A DNA stretch of 20,000 bases from an uncultured virus (IMG/VR IMGVR_UViG_3300043094_000104) (lineage: Duplodnaviria; Heunggongvirae; Uroviricota; Caudoviricetes), in the IMG/VR virus record IMGVR_UViG_3300043094_000104; one strand, written 5' to 3'. The notes under the pieces are model-generated. The model was not told the origin of the DNA and made no database searches. It worked only from the letters and a program-made list of their open reading frames with translations. Every line of letters begins with the position of its first letter. Within the stretch, counting starts at the first letter, position 1. The position numbers and the translations under genes were made by a program. Of the stretch, positions 10,268-17,816 are shown in pieces.

Positions 10268-12187
10268 TTAAGCATAAGTACCATCAAAACCACTTAATGT
10301 ATTATTTTTCTTCTCATTGATCTTTGAAAATGGTGAATCTAATTTTAATTCTAGTTTCTGCAATATTTTTTTATCACTAGAAACTTTCATTAATTTTTCC
10401 ATTTTCTTTATTTGTTCTTGAATTTCTTTTTTCTGCTTCGGATTTAATTTATCACCATTTTTATTTAATTCTTGTTTATATAATTCTAATATTTTTTTAC
10501 ATCTTGTAATATTAGAAGGATGACAATCTATAAAATACATTCCCATATAAGATGTAAATAAAGTATATATTTTAGAAAGAGATGTAAGAACATCTAAAGA
10601 ATTCATTGGATTATCTGAAATGGCTTCTAACCCAGTGTAGAGATCTTTACCATAACCATGTTTAGCTGCAAAAGCATCTGCATATTTTTCAGCCTGATAG
10701 TCTAAAGTAAGAAGACCTGCTGAACCAACGTCTTTAAATAAAGATTTTATTACTTTCATTAATATAATTTTAATAACTAATTTTATAGGTGTAAGTATTA
10801 TATTTAATGTTTTATTAATTGCACCAAAGACTTCTCTAAAGCCACCAATAATTTTATTAAATACAGTTAAATTAAGTTGTAATTTATCTCCAATAATATC
10901 ATAAGATCCTGGATTAGATAACCAAACTAAAGTTTTATAAATAAATTCTTTTTGTTTAGTTGGAAGAAATTCTAATGGCATTTTAAATAATGTTTCAATT
11001 AAAAATTCTAATAAATCTTTTGTATATTCTCTAAAAGCACCTTCAGAATTATTTAATAAAAATTTCCAAGTTATTTCTAAAATACCATCGACTATATTTT
11101 TACTACTATTATAACGAATATATTCTTTTCGTACAAAGAAATTATGTCCTATTTCATGAAGAAATATTGCATTAACTTCTTCTTTAGTAAGTTCACCTGT
11201 TAATAATTTAGGATAAATATAGATATTAATTTTTTTATCAGTTGAATCTTTAAATTTAATTCCTTCAGAATTTTCAACTAAATCATAATTCTGCTTTTTA
11301 GTTTTACTAGCAACATTAATCCAATTTATAGTAAAAGCATTTTGAACGCCATAATTACTACCAATATGAATATTTAATTTTTCTAAATTAAAATATTTTT
11401 CTAATTTAGCTTCAGCTTTTCTAATATCATTTTTATATTTATATGGATTTTCATTATGACTAACTGCATAAATAAGTTTTTCCCATAATTCATCTTCTAT
11501 TTCTTTCATTGTATTGGATTTTCCATAGAAAGCTTCATTATAATAATTATCTTCTTTTAAACTTGTTGCAGTATTATAAGCTCCTAATCCAGTAGTGAAA
11601 ACTGAAGCACCTGCAGCAATTGCTAATTGTTTATTTTGTTTCTTTAATTCGTTAATTCTATTATTCTTCCAAATACTAAAGCTTTCTTTTGAACCAGATT
11701 GTTTATAAAGCTTTTTAGCTTCACTATTATTATTTAATAATTTTAATTCTTTATTATTTTTTACTAATGTTTTAAAACTATAAACAGATCCTGCAGCTCC
11801 TGCTCCAGTTATAGCTAAATTTTTAGATACTTTTCCAACATTTCTACCGTTTATATTGAAATTATTAAAATTAACATTTGATATGTTTGGAGCTATATAT
11901 TTACCTTTTTTATTTAAAGTATTATAAGCTCCTAATCCAGTAGCTCCTACTACACCTAAATTACTATATCTTAAATTTTTAATTTGTCCGTTTAAATACA
12001 TTTTTCTTTCTGAAAGCCATTTAGAATAAGGTTTTTCACTTCCAGAATCTCTATATATTTTTTTAGCTTCTGTAGGATTATTTAATAATTTTAATTCTTT
12101 TTTTAAATTAGCAAGTTCTAATGTATTAGCAGCACCTGCAGTAGCAGCCAAACCCATAGTACCTAATCCTATTTGTTGTCTAGTCAT
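10268..12187 (-). CDS. Putative virion protein with N-terminal Gly-zipper repeats and a C-terminal M48-like zinc metallopeptidase domain
   Basis: EEVNAIFLHEIGH (HEXXH at 11144-11158), downstream EKYADAFA and HPSNITR are typical M48/HtpX-family motifs. Confidence 0.7.
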   Translation of the reverse strand: MTRQQIGLGTMGLAATAGAANTLELANLKKELKLLNNPTEAKKIYRDSGSEKPYSKWLSERKMYLNGQIKNLRYSNLGVVGATGLGAYNTLNKKGKYIAPNISNVNFNNFNINGRNVGKVSKNLAITGAGAAGSVYSFKTLVKNNKELKLLNNNSEAKKLYKQSGSKESFSIWKNNRINELKKQNKQLAIAAGASVFTTGLGAYNTATSLKEDNYYNEAFYGKSNTMKEIEDELWEKLIYAVSHNENPYKYKNDIRKAEAKLEKYFNLEKLNIHIGSNYGVQNAFTINWINVASKTKKQNYDLVENSEGIKFKDSTDKKINIYIYPKLLTGELTKEEVNAIFLHEIGHNFFVRKEYIRYNSSKNIVDGILEITWKFLLNNSEGAFREYTKDLLEFLIETLFKMPLEFLPTKQKEFIYKTLVWLSNPGSYDIIGDKLQLNLTVFNKIIGGFREVFGAINKTLNIILTPIKLVIKIILMKVIKSLFKDVGSAGLLTLDYQAEKYADAFAAKHGYGKDLYTGLEAISDNPMNSLDVLTSLSKIYTLFTSYMGMYFIDCHPSNITRCKKILELYKQELNKNGDKLNPKQKKEIQEQIKKMEKLMKVSSDKKILQKLELKLDSPFSKINEKKNNTLSGFDGTYA

Positions 12188-12230
12188 TTATAGTAGCATC
12201 TCCTTTCCATATATTTAATAATTAAAAGTT

Positions 12231-12271
12231 TTTAATTAAAAACCCTAATGAGTATTACACTCATTAGGGTT
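12231..12271 (-). terminator. Intrinsic terminator after recA
   Basis: AACCCTAATGAGT / ACTCATTAGGGTT hairpin followed by Ts on the minus strand. Confidence 0.75.
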
Positions 12272-12290
12272 ACTTTATATAATATTTATT

Positions 12291-12833
12291 TTATTCTTCG
12301 TATTCTACTTCTTCGCCTTCAGATGTATAGAACTTTCCATCAGAACCTTCCCATACATCATTTTCTTTATCAATGCATTTAATAAGTTCAATATCTTCTT
12401 CAACTTCATCTATTACTTCTTCATTATTATCTAAATTTTTATCAATATATAAAGAAGAATTTGGAATAAACTTTACATAGTTTTCTTTAATAAGATCAGC
12501 AACAGCTTTTCTTAATTTTTCATTCTCATTATACTTTTCTTTAAAAGTCTTTAGAGTAAATTTAACTTCAGGAAGTTTTTCTAAATAATAAGCTCTTGGA
12601 GAACCCTTAAGTAGTCCTAATTCCTTGAAATTAACTAAATTACTTAAAACATTGTCAAAACCTGACGACTGTTCAAAAACCATTTCAAAAGTTCTTCCTG
12701 CTTCATTAGATCTTGACTTTATGAACTCACCTTTTACCATAAATCCTTTAACACCATAAGTTGAATCTTCATCAAGCTTTGTTGAAGTTGTACAACGAAT
12801 GATATTATTGGCAAGGTATAGTATTGAAGAACC
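12291..12833 (-). CDS. recA: RecA/UvsX-like recombinase, exon 3 (GSSILYLANN...end, 180 aa)
   Basis: Begins after the intron's terminal G (12834). The first 18 aa of the tracked ORF are intron P3'/P8/P7' sequence. Contains the IKSR motif of the RecA C-terminal core. Confidence 0.85.
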   Translation of the reverse strand, partial: GSSILYLANNIIRCTTSTKLDEDSTYGVKGFMVKGEFIKSRSNEAGRTFEMVFEQSSGFDNVLSNLVNFKELGLLKGSPRAYYLEKLPEVKFTLKTFKEKYNENEKLRKAVADLIKENYVKFIPNSSLYIDKNLDNNEEVIDEVEEDIELIKCIDKENDVWEGSDGKFYTSEGEEVEYEE

Positions 12834-13005
12834 CATAACTAGACTATATCTTAATCCTTTATAAAAAAGGATCGCTCCCATTTCCATTTAATCTGGAATT
12901 ATATGATTATTGCTCAATACCAGAACCCATTAATGGGCTGTACTCTACTTCCTTCGTGTAAGTATTTCAACTTACCTTATTCTCTATATTATAGAGTTAT
13001 ATTTA

Positions 13006-13782
13006 TTATTTGGTTTCGATAGTCGTTGAACTTAAAATTTTTTCAATATTATCTTTATCAGAAATAGTTATAAAATTATAACCATATTTTAAAGCCAATT
13101 CTTTTTTATTTTTGTCTATAAGTTGTCTTTCTTCTAAATCTTTATCTGTCATATTCCATTTCTTTTTATAGTGTTGTTCACCTTGAAATTCTATTAATAA
13201 ATTTTTAGATTCTATAAAAAAATCATATGGTTTATTAAATAAATATTTATCTTCTTTGAGAATATAGTTATGAATATATTTTACATTATTATTATTTAAA
13301 AATTCTGAGATAAATTTTTCTCCTTTACTCATCTTAGACATTTTAGAACATTCTTTACAACCTTGTCCTCTATAATGATGTAGCATATCCATCTCAAATT
13401 CACCATGAATTGGACAAATTATAATACTTTTTGTCTTTCCATTAATATAATTAAATTTAGAATAATCATATTTATTATTATGGATTTTATTAGCTTTCTC
13501 TTTCCAATTAGTATTTCTTTGTTTATTTGCCATATTTTCTTTTCCACATTTTGGGCAACCACATCCATTTAAATGAATACCAGCTACCATTTTAAATTCA
13601 CCATGTTTAGGACAAATAATAATTACTTCAGAATGCCAACTTTTATATTCAGCTTTAGAATAATCATATTTATTATTATGGATTTTATTAGCTCTTTCAA
13701 CAAAAGAATTAGCACAATTTTTTACTCTAGAAATACTACATTTTCTTTTCTGATCAAGAATAGGATTTTTTCCTTTATACAT
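13006..13782 (-). CDS. Intron-encoded homing endonuclease (two DUF723-like Zn repeats + Vsr/EDxHD-like domain)
   Basis: Two ANKIHNNKYDYSK...IICP.HGEF...GC..C repeats, then SKGE...PYDFFI...LIEFQGEQH. Lies between the Q and R elements, and its last codons (SSTTIETK) run through R. Confidence 0.85.
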   Translation of the reverse strand: MYKGKNPILDQKRKCSISRVKNCANSFVERANKIHNNKYDYSKAEYKSWHSEVIIICPKHGEFKMVAGIHLNGCGCPKCGKENMANKQRNTNWKEKANKIHNNKYDYSKFNYINGKTKSIIICPIHGEFEMDMLHHYRGQGCKECSKMSKMSKGEKFISEFLNNNNVKYIHNYILKEDKYLFNKPYDFFIESKNLLIEFQGEQHYKKKWNMTDKDLEERQLIDKNKKELALKYGYNFITISDKDNIEKILSSTTIETK

Positions 13783-13811
13783 TGAATCACAACCTTACTT
13801 TAATAAAATTA

Positions 13812-13823
13812 TAAATTCATGTT
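13812..13823 (-). promoter_or_regulatory. Putative intron-internal late promoter for the endonuclease
   Basis: AACA TGAATT TA, about 30 nt upstream of the ATG and nearly identical to the capsid upstream motif. Confidence 0.55.
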
Positions 13824-14058
13824 AAAAGGTAGTAGATCCTTTTATTTTAAAATTTTTTAGATGCTGATAGTCAATTATAACGATACTTAGAATTTCTTCA
13901 TATATCAACTTTTATATTTTTTCTGATTTTCATCAACATTCACGCTTAGAATTACTTCTTACGTTGTAGTTATAAAAGTATTATGACGTTCCAGCAATTA
14001 AGGAGCTTTATTTTTCGCAATGTTACCATTACGCCAGGCAGTTCGTTCATTTTGTTCA

Positions 14059-14073
14059 ACCTGGAATACTTTC
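14059..14073 (-). CDS. recA: RecA/UvsX-like recombinase, 15-nt micro-exon 2 (ESIPG)
   Basis: GAA AGT ATT CCA GGT lies between intron 1's terminal G (14074) and intron 2's 5' splice site. It restores ...YLKQD-ESIPG-GSSILYLA, equivalent to RecA ETTPGGNALKFYA. Confidence 0.88.
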
Positions 14074-14405
14074 CTTTAAATTTTCATATAAGGTCGTTAA
14101 GCTTATATCGTTCTCTTATGAACTGCTATATATTACTATATAGAAAAGACTATATCTTCATAGAAAATATTTCTATGCTCCCCATTTCGATTTAATTAGG
14201 AATTATAAGATTATTACTCTAAACCTAAACCACTTGGCTCTACTCTACTCCCTTCTTCAGCTATTCAATAATAGCTTATAGTTTCGATAGTCGTTGAACT
14301 TTTATTCTAAGAATTCTTAGAATACTTAGCTGCTGATTGTCCTTGTTTTAAGGAGTTTCCAGCAATTAGAGGAGTTTAGACAGGACTCAAGATTATCGTT
14401 GGTTA
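14074..14405 (-). mobile_element. Group I intron 1 in recA (332 nt, ORF-less, IA-like)
   Basis: P1 ACAGGAU/GUCCUGU; P element AAUUGCUGGAAA; Q element AAUCAGCAG; R element GUUCAACGACUA; S element AAGAUAUAGUCU; P9 CUAUAUA-GUAA-UAUAUAG plus further P9 hairpins; terminal G. Confidence 0.92.
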
Positions 14406-15140
14406 ATCCTGTTTGAGATAGTTTATTGCAGCTTGCGTCTTAGCAAATGCATTTATCTCAATTTTTTGAGTTATATGGTTAATTGCAATTAAGATAATAT
14501 TTCCTCTTTCAAGAGGACCTGCTAATCTCTTAATAATAGAATTATTAATTCTTGCAATAGATGTTGCTGACATCTGACCACTTAATTCATCTTCTTCAGA
14601 AATCCCTTCAGGAATAGTTAAAGCCCAACTATCTAATAAAATTACTGTAGGTGGTAAAACATAAATAGGATTTCCATCACTATCTACTTCACCAGAATCT
14701 AACTTAATTTCATCATAAGTTTCAGGCTTATTCTTAAGCTTATCAATAGATTTAACTAATTTATAAATGCTTTCAGAATAAATATTTCTCTGAAGATTCT
14801 TATACTTCTTTTCAATAGTTTCATCAGACCAACCAGAAATAGTTTTAACCCTAGAAACATTAGTTGCTCTTTCAAAGTCATAATGGAAAATATTACCATT
14901 CTCATATGGTTCAACAATAGAACAAGCCATCTTAATAGCTAACGAACTTTTTCCGCTTCCGCTTTTGCCAATAATGGTAACAATTCTACCACCATCAAAA
15001 CCAGTAGTAACTTTTCCATGTTCAATTCTTCCGTTACGATAATCCATTACATCAATACCACTAGTATAAGTAGGTGTAAATGGAATTTCCTCTCCTAGTT
15101 TTTCCTTCTGAATTGTTTCATTAATAAGATCAAATAACAT
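14406..15140 (-). CDS. recA: RecA/UvsX-like recombinase, exon 1 (245 aa; spliced product about 430 aa)
   Basis: TSGIDVMD, Walker A GKSGSGKS, catalytic DFE, Walker B VILLDS, AR, IAINH. GGAGG RBS upstream. Confidence 0.9.
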
Positions 15141-15196
15141 GATTATACCTCCAAAAATTTTAGATTTGTTATTTATTGTACAAAGTACAATTTTAA

Positions 15197-15208
15197 TATT
15201 TTCATGTT
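15197..15208 (-). promoter_or_regulatory. Putative AACA-N6-TA promoter for recA
   Basis: AACA TGAAAA TA on the minus strand. Confidence 0.5.
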
Positions 15209-15260
15209 ACACCTAGCCTTTTTATTTAAATTCAAAACCGTATTAAACCATAGTCGTATA

Positions 15261-15318
15261 TATATATTATAATTGTGAATAAAAGTAATAAGACACCTTA
15301 AAAACGATTACTTTATTC
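15261..15318 (+). promoter_or_regulatory. Putative early promoter (copy 3) followed by a 5' hairpin
   Basis: TATATATTATAATTGTGAATAA is identical to 2341-2362. Hairpin GAATAAAAGTAAT/ATTACTTTATTC follows. Confidence 0.7.
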
Positions 15319-15343
15319 TAATATAATACATAATAATATTTAA

Positions 15344-15667
15344 ATGGTGGCGGAAAGAAATACTATGAAAAATGTTAACGAAATGTCTGCAATGGAATTC
15401 ATCAACTATGCTTGCGAAGTCGAAGAAGCTAAGAAAGTAAAAGTAGTTAATGGCAAACCAGTTAAGGATAACAATAACAACAAGAAGGTTAACAAAAATG
15501 ATAGCAAAAAGGATAGATATATTTGGATAACAAGATTGATATCAGTATATAACATCCCAAGTAATATTTTGGTTCTTGAAAAGGAACAGATTGAAGTTGC
15601 TGTCATTAAGTATACTGATAGAGAAGAATTTGAAGATAGAGTTTCAAAAATTCTCGGTATATACTAA
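15344..15667 (+). CDS. Hypothetical early protein (start may be ATG 15365)
   Basis: ORF between an early-type promoter and a terminator. Confidence 0.75.
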   Translation: MVAERNTMKNVNEMSAMEFINYACEVEEAKKVKVVNGKPVKDNNNNKKVNKNDSKKDRYIWITRLISVYNIPSNILVLEKEQIEVAVIKYTDREEFEDRVSKILGIY

Positions 15668-15670
15668 TAT

Positions 15671-15711
15671 AAAAAATCACATGCAGTTAATTTGTGTGTG
15701 ATTTTTTTTTT
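15671..15711 (+). terminator. Intrinsic terminator
   Basis: AAAAAATCACATGCA / TGTGTGTGATTTTTT hairpin plus T-run. Confidence 0.8.
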
Positions 15712-15722
15712 CATAAATTAAA

Positions 15723-15760
15723 TATATATTATTTTTTTAGTAAGTAAAACAACTTACTAA
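15723..15760 (+). promoter_or_regulatory. Ligase promoter region with both motif types
   Basis: TATATATTAT at 15723-15732, hairpin TTAGTAAGT/ACTTACTAA, and AACA-ACTTAC-TA at 15748-15759. Confidence 0.5.
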
Positions 15761-15791
15761 TATTTAATACAATTTTTAGGAGGAAATAATT

Positions 15792-17816
15792 ATGACTATT
15801 AATTATGAAAAAGCTAAGAAAAATCTATTAATGAAAAAGGATCTTGAAAAGGTAAAGGAGCTTTTAATTGAATCATCTAAAGCTTATTATAACTCAAGTT
15901 CATTAATTCTTTCAGATGATGAATATGATGAACTTTATAAAGCTTATAAAAGTTTAACAAATGATGAAATTATTGGTGCTGAACCTAATAAAGGTTCAAA
16001 GACTGTTTCAGTCGAACATAGTTACAATAATTTAGTTGGAACACTTGATAAAGCAAAAGATCTTGATGAAGTTAAACCTTTCTTAAAGAGATTTTCTACA
16101 GTAGATATGAAAAATAAAAAATATACTGTAAGAATGTCTTTAAAGTTTGATGGTAATTCAATTACTATTGAATATGATAAAAATGGTGTACCAAAGAAAG
16201 CTCTTACAAGAGGACAAGATGGTAAAGGTAAAGATATTATTAATGTATTTAGTGGAAAAGATGATATTGTTAATATGAATAATTTTAATTTATCTTTACT
16301 AGATTCCGAATTTGCTATCAAGTATGAAGTTATTATAACTTATGAAGATTATGAAAAGCTTTGTAAAGAAACTGGAGAAGAATATGCAAATCCTAGAAGC
16401 ACTATTTCAGGAATTTTGAATAGTAATGAAGGTGTTAATTTTAGAAAATATATGACACTTGTTCCTTTGGAAATGAGAGTTAAAGATGAAGGATTTGCAT
16501 ATGAAAATGGTCTTAAGAAATTATATAGAGATGAAATTAGCGAAATTTATCCTATTAATTATTATGACACATATTTCACTAAAGTAAAGAAAGGAACTCT
16601 AGAAGAAATAGAAGAAGAAATTAAGAAATATTATGATAAAACAAATAAAATGCGTGAAACACTTCCTTTTATGATTGATGGAATAGTTGTTGAATTTCTT
16701 AATAAAGAAATTATTGATAAATATTTCTATGATCCTAGAGGTTATATTCCACAGTATTCATTTGCTGTAAAGCTTCCTTATCTTGAAAAACCTACTGAAG
16801 TTACTGATATTGATTATTGTATTGGTAATAGTGGTAGAATCACTCCAAGAATTTGGTTTAAGGAAGTTCAATTTAATGGCACAACTCATACAAAGCAACA
16901 GATTAGTAATTATAAAAGATTTAGAGAACTAAATCTAGGTAAAGGTAGTAAGATTATGGTAAGCTATCATAATGATTGTCTATCTTATATTACTAAAATG
17001 GAAGAACAACCAGAAGGCATTGAACCATTTAAATTCATTAATAGATGTCCTATTTGTAATACTAAAATTAAAGTAAGAAAGAATGATAATGGAGAACTTA
17101 CATTAGCTAAGTGTCCTAATAAAGAATGCCCAGGACGTCTTAAAGGAAAAATTGAAAATTATTTCATTAAGATGGATATTAAAGGTATTAAAATGAATAC
17201 TATTGAAGATCTTTATGATAATAAACTTCTTACCGATATTCCTAGTATTTATAAAATGAATTATAAAAAGGTAGCAAAATTATTAGGAAATAAAACTGCA
17301 GAAAATATTAAAAATGCTATTGAAGAAAAAGAATTCTATGATTATGAAATCTTAGGATCTCTTGGAATTAATAATATTAGTATTGAAAATGCTAAAGTAA
17401 TTTGTAAGAATTATAATCTTGATGAAATTATTGATCTTTATAATGACGATAAACTTTATGATTCAATTATTAAGTTAGAAGGATTTAGTAATACTAAGAC
17501 TAATAACTTTATTGAAGGATTTGAAGAAAATTCTGATACAATTGAATTTCTATATAGTAAAGGATATAAGAATTATAAAGATAATTTTAAAGATGCTAAA
17601 TTTGATTTAAATATTGTTGTAACAGGTTGGAGACCTGATCCTGTAATGGAAATGAAAATGGAATCTATGGGTATTAAAATTAAATCTTCAGTTTCAAAGA
17701 AAGTTAATTTAGTTGTTTATTCAGATAATCCAGGGGCTACTAAAGTAAATAAAGCTAAAGAACTAAATATCCCAACAATGTATGTAGAAGAGTTCAAAGA
17801 AAAGTATAATATTTAA
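15792..17816 (+). CDS. ligA: NAD-dependent DNA ligase
   Basis: AYY...SDDEYD (domain Ia), KFDG adenylation motif, LTRGQDG, NPR, IDGIVV, GRITP, C4 Zn finger (CPIC...CPNKEC), HhH region, C-terminal BRCT (VVTG...SVSKK...KA..L.I). Confidence 0.95.
   Translation: MTINYEKAKKNLLMKKDLEKVKELLIESSKAYYNSSSLILSDDEYDELYKAYKSLTNDEIIGAEPNKGSKTVSVEHSYNNLVGTLDKAKDLDEVKPFLKRFSTVDMKNKKYTVRMSLKFDGNSITIEYDKNGVPKKALTRGQDGKGKDIINVFSGKDDIVNMNNFNLSLLDSEFAIKYEVIITYEDYEKLCKETGEEYANPRSTISGILNSNEGVNFRKYMTLVPLEMRVKDEGFAYENGLKKLYRDEISEIYPINYYDTYFTKVKKGTLEEIEEEIKKYYDKTNKMRETLPFMIDGIVVEFLNKEIIDKYFYDPRGYIPQYSFAVKLPYLEKPTEVTDIDYCIGNSGRITPRIWFKEVQFNGTTHTKQQISNYKRFRELNLGKGSKIMVSYHNDCLSYITKMEEQPEGIEPFKFINRCPICNTKIKVRKNDNGELTLAKCPNKECPGRLKGKIENYFIKMDIKGIKMNTIEDLYDNKLLTDIPSIYKMNYKKVAKLLGNKTAENIKNAIEEKEFYDYEILGSLGINNISIENAKVICKNYNLDEIIDLYNDDKLYDSIIKLEGFSNTKTNNFIEGFEENSDTIEFLYSKGYKNYKDNFKDAKFDLNIVVTGWRPDPVMEMKMESMGIKIKSSVSKKVNLVVYSDNPGATKVNKAKELNIPTMYVEEFKEKYNI

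Follow-up and report, generated by a model that had tools for sequence, protein, structure and literature searches.

An uncultivated AR9/PBS1-like jumbo phage, known from the virus record IMGVR_UViG_3300043094_000104 (265,109 bp, rated complete), carries a RecA-family recombinase gene that open reading frame (ORF) calling returns as two separate ORFs, of 245 and 198 amino acids (aa). The question raised by this locus is whether the 1572 nt that interrupt the gene consist of two introns and, between them, a coding exon of just 15 nt, as an original prediction made from the letters alone had proposed. The analysed stretch, here called the window, comprises bases 81053-101052 of the record, 20,000 nt in all, and coordinates are window positions unless another sequence is named. 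We consider it very probable that both are genuine group I introns, spliced out around a retained 15-nt exon.

The interrupted gene and its spliced product

The features of the gene, all on the minus strand, are collected in Table 1. Exon 1 closes with ...AAA CAG GAT at 14406, and an in-frame TAA follows directly. Beyond intron 1 (14405-14074) come the 15 letters of the micro-exon, GAAAGTATTCCAGGT (14073-14059), again with an in-frame stop, TGA, directly after. Beyond intron 2 (14058-12834) the reading frame resumes with GGT TCT TCA from 12833 and runs to a stop at 12291. By script the lengths of all three exons are divisible by 3, so that both junctions lie in phase 0. The coordinates and letters of both introns, of the micro-exon and of the exon ends are all as originally predicted.

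Table 1. Features of the interrupted recombinase gene in the 20,000-nt window.
Feature	Coordinates	Strand	Remarks
Exon 1, UvsX-like recombinase	14406..15140	-	245 codons; Walker A GKSGSGKS; terminates ...KQD
Intron 1, ORF-less group I intron	14074..14405	-	332 nt; last letter G (14074); no P2; P7.1, P9, P9.1 and P9.2 present
Intron 1 internal guide sequence GUCCUGU	14380..14386	-	pairs with exon-1 end ACAGGAU (14412-14406), U.G at 14406
Micro-exon, 15 nt, encodes ESIPG	14059..14073	-	nt 3-5, weak P10 of intron 1; nt 10-15, P1 of intron 2
Intron 2, group I intron with ORF in P6 loop	12834..14058	-	1225 nt; last letter G (12834); P2 with GUAA loop; in-frame TGA at 5' end
Intron 2 internal guide sequence GAACU + GCCUGG	14034..14044	-	P10 and P1 on one stretch
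Intron-2 ORF, putative homing endonuclease	13006..13782	-	258 aa; two CapR/DUF723-like zinc-ribbon repeats and C-terminal Vsr-like nuclease domain
Exon 3	12291..12833	-	180 codons and stop; first residues GSSILYLANN

Joining the exons by their coordinates (by script) gives a 430-aa product that is colinear end to end with AR9 gp086, BpSp gp154 and LPJP1 gp183. Comparison of this product with intron-less homologues, which had been suggested as a check of the prediction, yields an alignment free of gaps across the junctions, with the same ESIPGG in the homologues. The junction region reads KQD-ESIPG-GSSILYLANN in the window protein, KQDESIPGGTSCIYLAN in AR9 and KQDESIPGGGSAIYLAN in BpSp; KQDESIPGG is identical in the two intron-less homologues, and ESIPGG is kept in all close homologues. 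AR9 gp086 can be aligned to Escherichia coli RecA as far as ...INQIRMKIGV, and the GG that comes next we take to be G211/G212 of RecA, at the end of loop L2.

The best matches of exon 1 are the UvsX-like recombinases of Bacillus jumbo phages in the AR9/PBS1 group (60% aa identity, Internexus/AR9), followed by weaker matches to Listeria phage LPJP1 and to Staphylococcus jumbo phages; 24 phage records were matched in total. Exon 1 matches the UvsX-like family phrog_97 with an E value of 5.4e-31 and exon 3 matches it with 6.4e-7 (profile positions 357-476). Membership in the RecA/UvsX family is indicated by these profile matches, by the Walker A motif and by an L2-GG segment colinear with that of homologues. 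The name UvsX-like is preferred over recA because Pfam RecA scores exon 1 at just 30.6 bits, barely above its cut-off of 27. The host gene is a phage UvsX-like recombinase of the RecA family and not a cellular-type recA, which refines the name recA used in the original prediction.

Two group I cores

Helices of both introns were placed by index, and each pair was then verified by script. For intron 1, the Rfam model RF00028 matches 14415-14126 (minus strand) over its full length (1-253) with 79.6 bits, against a gathering score of 50, and an E value of 4e-19. P1 forms 7 of 7 base pairs with the U.G pair at 14406, and every pair is formed in P3, P4, P5, P6/P6a, P7, P7.1, P8, P9 (which has a GUAA loop), P9.1 and P9.2. 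Covariation was assessed in five introns, namely intron 1, three further introns without ORFs from this genome, and the intron of a relative (locus L035, described below). In this alignment 87.5% of the cells are paired, a percentage favoured by the derivation of the structure from one row of the same alignment, compared with 40-47% when partners are slid; none of 500 shuffles reaches the observed values. Pairs changed on both sides number 27, compared with 4-13 for slid partners. P3 is paired in 100% of its cells, with compensatory changes in three of its six pairs; P6a and P8 covary as well, and P7 is invariant.

In intron 2 the guide GCCUGG forms 6 of 6 pairs with the micro-exon end CCAGGU (14064-14059), including the U.G at 14059 (script), so the micro-exon does supply the P1 strand of intron 2 with its last 6 nt, as had been predicted. 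P10 forms 5 of 5 pairs, between GAACU, just 5' of the P1 guide, and the exon-3 start GGUUC (12833-12829). P2, P3, P4, P7, P7.1, P7.2 and P8 are completely paired, and P6 is paired at 6 of 7 positions (script). The two introns have core blocks in common, in the same order (P3/P4, P7, P3'-P8, P7'), with identities of 100% over 21 nt (P7-5'), 78% over 79 nt (P3'-P8) and 90% over 21 nt (P3/P4), a match beyond what chance would yield. Their P4 and P7 strands are identical; P8 of intron 2 is different, yet completely paired. Both introns therefore show the features of the group, that is a P1 with a U.G pair made by a guide, a terminal G, and a P3-P4-P6/P7-P3-P8 core with the P3/P7 pseudoknot. The U.G pairs and P/Q/R/S elements claimed for both introns from the letters alone are borne out by these script-checked helices.

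Joined exons in RNA libraries

Evidence on splicing comes from four public metatranscriptome runs (X1-X4) of four studies, whose assembled contigs were placed on positions 11500-16000. In X1 and in X2, which belong to two studies, one contig each goes from 14406 to 12833 with precisely the 15 micro-exon letters, as their reverse complement, between. The string forecast for the spliced RNA, CAGGAT-GAAAGTATTCCAGGT-GGTTCT, is thus present in RNA-library contigs of two of the four runs. Over exon 1 the joined contigs are identical to the window (643 and 669 nt, zero differences), and their junctions carry no positional ambiguity ('both' = 0). RNA contigs begin or stop precisely at 14406, and X1 and X2 contigs end precisely at 12833. 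Two outcomes had been named beforehand as counting against the prediction, namely junctions at other positions and intron-less homologues lacking an ESIPGG-like segment, and neither was found.

Contigs across unspliced junctions also occur in X1 and X2 (12804-13485 and 13862-14196). By a rough measure, the spliced and unspliced branches together add up to the depth of the exon-3 contig, with 7.3 + 14.2 as against 21.9 in X1 and 11.2 + 4.4 as against 14.9 in X2; the spliced branch has a share of about one third in X1 and about three quarters in X2. The bins to either side, 11500-11801 and 15124-15274, have no cover, and the exons have 7-22; in X2 cover is 160 on intron 1 compared with 11-15 on the exons. 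Cover this uneven fits RNA with a stable excised intron better than it fits DNA.

Several points weigh against the reading of two spliced introns. All RNA support consists of assembled contigs, without raw reads or a matched DNA run, and an intron-less DNA allele of the same strain could formally still be the source of the joined contigs. The exon-3 side of the joined contigs has 30 letters, one below the bridging rule of the tool, a shortness that is expected because the assembly graph forks there into spliced and unspliced paths. On the structural side, P10 of intron 1 comprises just 3 bp and is offset by two positions; the original prediction had called it weak, and the script check agrees. 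Intron 2 has no P9 hairpin, its terminal G (12834) being separated from P7-3' by 8 nt, and it falls short of the RF00028 gathering threshold, the model matching its 3' part only (12941-12821, 19.3 bits, E 0.044). This low score is explained by the 777-nt ORF in P6, which separates the core halves by a distance that the model is unable to bridge. Finally, the fold match of the protein encoded by that ORF, described below, has a Foldseek E value of 6e-3, above the 0.001 line of the tool.

The first of these points can be put as a rival explanation, in which an intron-less DNA allele contaminates the RNA libraries and the window gene is possibly an unspliced, inactive copy. RNA libraries may contain DNA, the comparison includes no DNA run, intron-less alleles do occur in relatives (locus L008), and the unspliced-junction contigs of X1 and X2 would suit this explanation too. 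We nevertheless hold it highly improbable. The joined contigs match the window without a difference over 643-669 nt of exon 1, whereas the intron-less L008 differs (83% aa identity); cover that drops to 0 in flanking bins and rises to 160 on intron 1 is unlike that of DNA; the share of the spliced branch varies by run; and both introns have complete catalytic cores, with guides matched to these very exons.

A second rival accepts splicing and holds that the micro-exon is often skipped, so that a recombinase lacking ESIPG is the major or a regulated product. Exon skipping is documented, in the available text of PMC10136302 and PMC11878797, for similar tandem group I introns around short exons, and the present introns have a common core and 5' exons that both end in CAGG(A)U. 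No joint leading from 14406 directly to 12833 is listed in the four runs, where assembly into contigs loses rare variants, and the only joints seen contain the micro-exon letters. Checked by eye, the guide of intron 1 is not complementary to the first letters of exon 3, and the guide of intron 2 is mismatched to the end of exon 1 beside the U.G pair. With ESIPGG conserved in all close homologues besides, we regard frequent skipping as very unlikely and retain the reading in which the 15-nt exon is included.

The two remaining runs differ from X1 and X2. X3 has no joint; one of its contigs (14074-14394) halts precisely at 14074, where intron 1 was predicted to end, and, being one contig from one study, gives a weak hint of excised linear intron 1. 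A contig of X4 has the same architecture with synonymous changes at the second junction, GGC GGA AGT where the window has GGT GGT TCT. These differences would destroy the U.G pair and P10 of intron 2, and we read the contig as probably derived from a relative without that intron. The small share of X4 and the uncovered bins within 11500-16000 were not used for ranking expression.

Empty and occupied sites in relatives

With a profile of exon 1, 61 loci were collected from viral contigs, and each was compared with the spliced protein. Fifty-seven of them give a single colinear match, with the L2 region uninterrupted. Both sites are empty in locus L008 (83% aa identity). In locus L009 (79%), 1266 nt are inserted precisely at the first site, between the D and E codons, and the second site is empty; this insert is 78-86% identical to intron 1 on either side of a 316-codon ORF, which is placed at the P6a hairpin. 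Locus L010, whose exon 1 is 99% identical, has a first-site intron with an ORF, and its contig ends within that ORF, before the second site. In loci L031 (972 nt, with an ORF) and L035 (363 nt, RF00028 80.4 bits) an intron lies between a P/S codon and GG, 3 nt upstream of the second site of the window, and the guides match the exon ends of their own genes (CUCCCU/GGGGAG and UUGUCU/GGACAA).

UvsX genes of the AR9-like type accordingly have three insertion points within 15 nt (D/E, P/G and G/G). Among these 61 loci and the window, the window gene is the only one seen with two of the points occupied, and an exact search with the 30-nt string spanning the end of intron 1, the micro-exon and the start of intron 2 gave 0 matches in other viral or metagenome contigs. 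From the comparison with L009 and L010, intron 1 appears to be an ORF-less derivative of a mobile intron that keeps its endonuclease gene in relatives.

These loci also bear on a third rival, in which all 1572 nt form a single composite element, either a twintron or one intron containing internal debris, or else the gene is fractured and yields two polypeptides without splicing. ORF callers do give ORFs of 245 and 198 aa, and just one Rfam match reaches threshold. A single excision, however, would remove ESIPG, which is present in the RNA join and in all homologues; two P1/guide pairs and two sets of P3-P8 core elements are found; and relatives carry either intron alone. We give this rival next to no chance, and both of its forms were rejected on the ESIPG in the RNA join, the two cores and the singly occupied relatives.

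Further differences among the alleles are seen at the sites themselves. Alleles with the first-site intron (the window, L009 and the X4 variant) open the next exon with GAAAGT, where the intron-less L008, AR9 and BpSp have GAGTCT or GAATCT. For the Gly-Gly-Ser codons, alleles without intron 2 (L009, 8002-8030, and the X4 variant) use GGA/GGC GGC/GGA AGT, and the window (14059 and 12829-12833) and the empty L008 site use GGT GGT TCT. The codon differences at both sites may reflect co-conversion, or selection for P1/P10 pairing. P6a of intron 1 (14303-14324) is a perfect 22-nt palindrome, a 9-bp stem with a 4-nt loop, at the position that some 950 nt of endonuclease gene occupy in L009 and L010; the palindrome may be a scar of ORF loss. 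In L010, moreover, the Walker A motif of the recombinase is interrupted by an in-frame insertion of 349 codons (L010:4954-6000; GKSGSGK/AQPLY...FIVTHN/TSLAIK). With its LAGLIDADG_3 domain (E 1.3e-14), it looks like an intein starting with Ala; the window gene has no such insertion.

One small region thus displays empty, singly occupied and doubly occupied sites, loss of an endonuclease and an additional, apparent intein in the 99%-identical L010. It offers a compact natural series for the study of homing, co-conversion and competition between mobile elements at a hotspot in L2-coding DNA.

The putative endonuclease of intron 2

The ORF of intron 2, whose last codons overlap the J6/7-P7 core, matches phrog_559 with an E value of 1.2e-47. 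Its relatives (6545 proteins at E <= 1e-5) have DUF4379/DUF723 domains, and some are named very-short-patch-repair endonuclease by their source. A sequence search of the ORF against the PDB found nothing relevant. An AlphaFold (AF2) model built from a 20-row alignment has a mean pLDDT of 85, and the top two Foldseek matches of this model are Vsr (1cw0) and the catalytic domain of I-Bth0305I (3r3p), both with a probability of 1.00; for this fold, TM to the target is 0.67 and the rmsd is 3.5 over 104 columns. On the strength of the modelled fold, the ORF putatively encodes a Vsr/EDxHD-like homing endonuclease, and intron 2 is presumably still mobile.

The nuclease domain and its counterpart in the first-site ORF of L009 share 58% identity; the N-terminal parts of the two proteins are unrelated. 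Related nucleases therefore bear different DNA-binding modules at sites 15 nt apart. Endonucleases of CapR-like and Vsr-like make-up are described, in the available portion of PMC12350094, from introns of AR9, PBS1 and LPJP1, and the architecture of the intron-2 ORF fits the 'outgroup' of that work as described there.

Comparison with known intron arrangements

Short exons between group I introns have precedents. In Twort orf142 (Landthaler and Shub 1999, as reported in the accessible text of PMC10136302), tandem group I introns 2 and 3 lie around a 23-nt exon, and exon skipping occurs. That gene and the window gene agree in having two similar IA-type group I introns in a gene for a phage protein, with a very short internal exon that acts as 3' exon for the intron before it and supplies the P1 strand for the intron after it. 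They differ in the size of the exon (23 nt in Twort, 15 nt here), in the gene (a tail tube protein in Twort, a recombinase here) and in that one intron here has an endonuclease ORF, which the other has lost. Skipping was observed by RT-PCR in Twort orf142, whereas the inclusion product alone is seen here, in contigs. The same text gives two group I introns around a 34-nt exon in the 23S rRNA of Coxiella burnetii, likewise a short exon between two introns, but in an rRNA gene and with introns of different subgroups. For the ribonucleotide reductase gene of phage phiNIT1, the part of PMC11878797 at hand mentions a 'small exon' between two introns, its size not being in the text, and for a gene of SIOphi it mentions exon skipping.

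At 15 nt, the internal exon of the window gene is the shortest among the cases compared (Twort 23 nt, Coxiella 34 nt), going by what these sources give. The original prediction had called a tandem pair 15 nt apart more unusual than single introns; tandem pairs around short exons turn out to have precedent in Twort. A search of the literature on phage group I introns with a microexon or short exon, at the level of listings, found no paper on a phage micro-exon. The arrangement as such is known already; what is new is the lineage of the host gene, at an L2 hotspot known from phage recA.

That hotspot is known from phage 0305phi8-36, whose recA group I intron site lies in L2 and is associated with I-Bth0305I, according to the available text of PMC3239194; a related recA intron occurs in the Bacillus cereus group, where most strains have derivatives without the homing endonuclease gene (HEG) (PMC2504315). 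The window gene has in common with that system a RecA-family gene, L2-coding DNA as the target, putatively a Vsr-like (EDxHD) intron endonuclease, and the occurrence of HEG-less derivatives. In 0305phi8-36 there is a single intron, between FGD and PNVTTGG, 5 codons before GG. The window sites lie 4 codons before GG and between the two G codons, which leaves the 0305phi8-36 site one codon further upstream. The intron cores of the two phages have only conserved motifs of 14-21 nt in common, the DNA-binding module is NUMOD in 0305phi8-36 and CapR/DUF723-like here, and the host protein here is a distant UvsX-like paralogue.

The introns of AR9, PBS1 and LPJP1 come from the same phage lineage as the present ones. 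As far as the consulted text of PMC12350094 goes, they too encode several CapR/DUF4379/DUF723-like domains of about 60 aa with a Vsr-like nuclease; they occur as multiple introns per gene, but not in the same gene as here, and AR9, BpSp and LPJP1 have UvsX genes without introns. That portion of the source describes no micro-exon for them.

Proposed course of splicing and spread

In the mechanism that we propose, two related but distinct group I introns have invaded the recombinase gene 15 nt apart, in DNA for the end of loop L2. Each would fold on its own core and find its 5' splice site with a guide of its own, intron 1 using GUCCUGU to pair with ACAGGAU and intron 2 using GCCUGG to pair with CCAGGU. 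In intron 2 a single uninterrupted guide would align the exons on either side (P1 and the 5-bp P10); intron 1 has little P10. Both introns are then removed and the 15-nt exon kept, giving the 430-aa protein with ...KQD-ESIPG-GSS.... We infer that both introns splice autocatalytically and dependent on GTP, and that the two splicing events are independent. The micro-exon nucleotides used by the two introns are separate (3-5 and 10-15), and the anatomy therefore imposes no splicing order; a constraint on that order, as the original prediction suggested, may exist all the same. The stop codons directly after both 5' splice sites fit a view cited in a review (PMC3984707, available in part), that an early in-intron stop codon stalls the ribosome and so aids folding of the intron. 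Homing of intron 2 would be driven by its endonuclease, and intron 1 may be co-converted along with it.

A wider reading takes the L2-coding DNA of RecA-family genes as a recurrent landing pad for introns with Vsr/EDxHD endonucleases. Here hitch-hiking would let intron 1 persist and spread without an ORF of its own, the break made 15 nt away by the intron 2 endonuclease would co-convert both introns, an allele occupied at both sites would have immunity from either endonuclease lineage, and the differing guides would enforce exclusive inclusion of the 15-nt exon. Taken jointly, with hitch-hiking, immunity and inclusion all included, this reading is possible but doubtful. If it is true, no internal exon shorter than 15 nt would have been seen so far between group I introns of bacteria or phages. 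As regards ribozyme mechanism, the two related introns appear to secure accurate inclusion of a 15-nt exon in a natural setting, and they provide a natural counterpart to the engineered tandem-intron systems for studying exon skipping that are described in the accessible text of PMC10136302.

Other introns of the phage genome

At about ten further places in the genome of this phage, motifs of the intron 1 core are found again, with order and strand unchanged. On its contig G000:C1 they lie at about 57.3, 122.5-123.6, 129.8, 141.0-142.3, 143.9-144.3, 144.6-145.9 and 223.3-223.6 kb, three of them within 5 kb at 141-146 kb. A genome search with RF00028 matches G000:C1:57316-57619 and 143924-144282 (43.2 and 40.9 bits); an Rfam scan by E value of four fetched regions (L072-L075) returned 0 matches, despite the RF00028 matches in two of them by genome search. 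Introns of a single group I family, some with ORFs and some without, are scattered throughout the phage. For annotation, gene callers break the recombinase into two unrelated-looking ORFs and drop five conserved residues, and intron-rich jumbo phages call for splice-aware annotation.

A second gene of this kind encodes an RNA polymerase beta subunit (locus L072; G000:C1, about 197,627-199,470, minus strand). About 1.85 kb lie between ...SSLNPSLE and EAYTTRTRGY..., where the intron-less homologue of a Staphylococcus phage has 18 residues. Because a stretch matching this homologue, ...RMGTASMKGLAGINVN, sits between two group I cores, the gene seems to hold a second tandem intron pair, with an exon of roughly 48-54 nt. 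In the second of these introns, a 334-codon ORF separates the guide sequence from the 5' splice site. For the first, several junction placements were tried by eye, and none unambiguously satisfies the rules on U(-1), terminal G and frame.

Neighbouring genes

The recombinase gene adjoins a gene for an NAD-dependent DNA ligase with adenylation, OB and BRCT domains (15792-17816, plus strand). Its other neighbour encodes a 639-aa protein (10268-12187, minus strand) with a weak match to Peptidase_M48.

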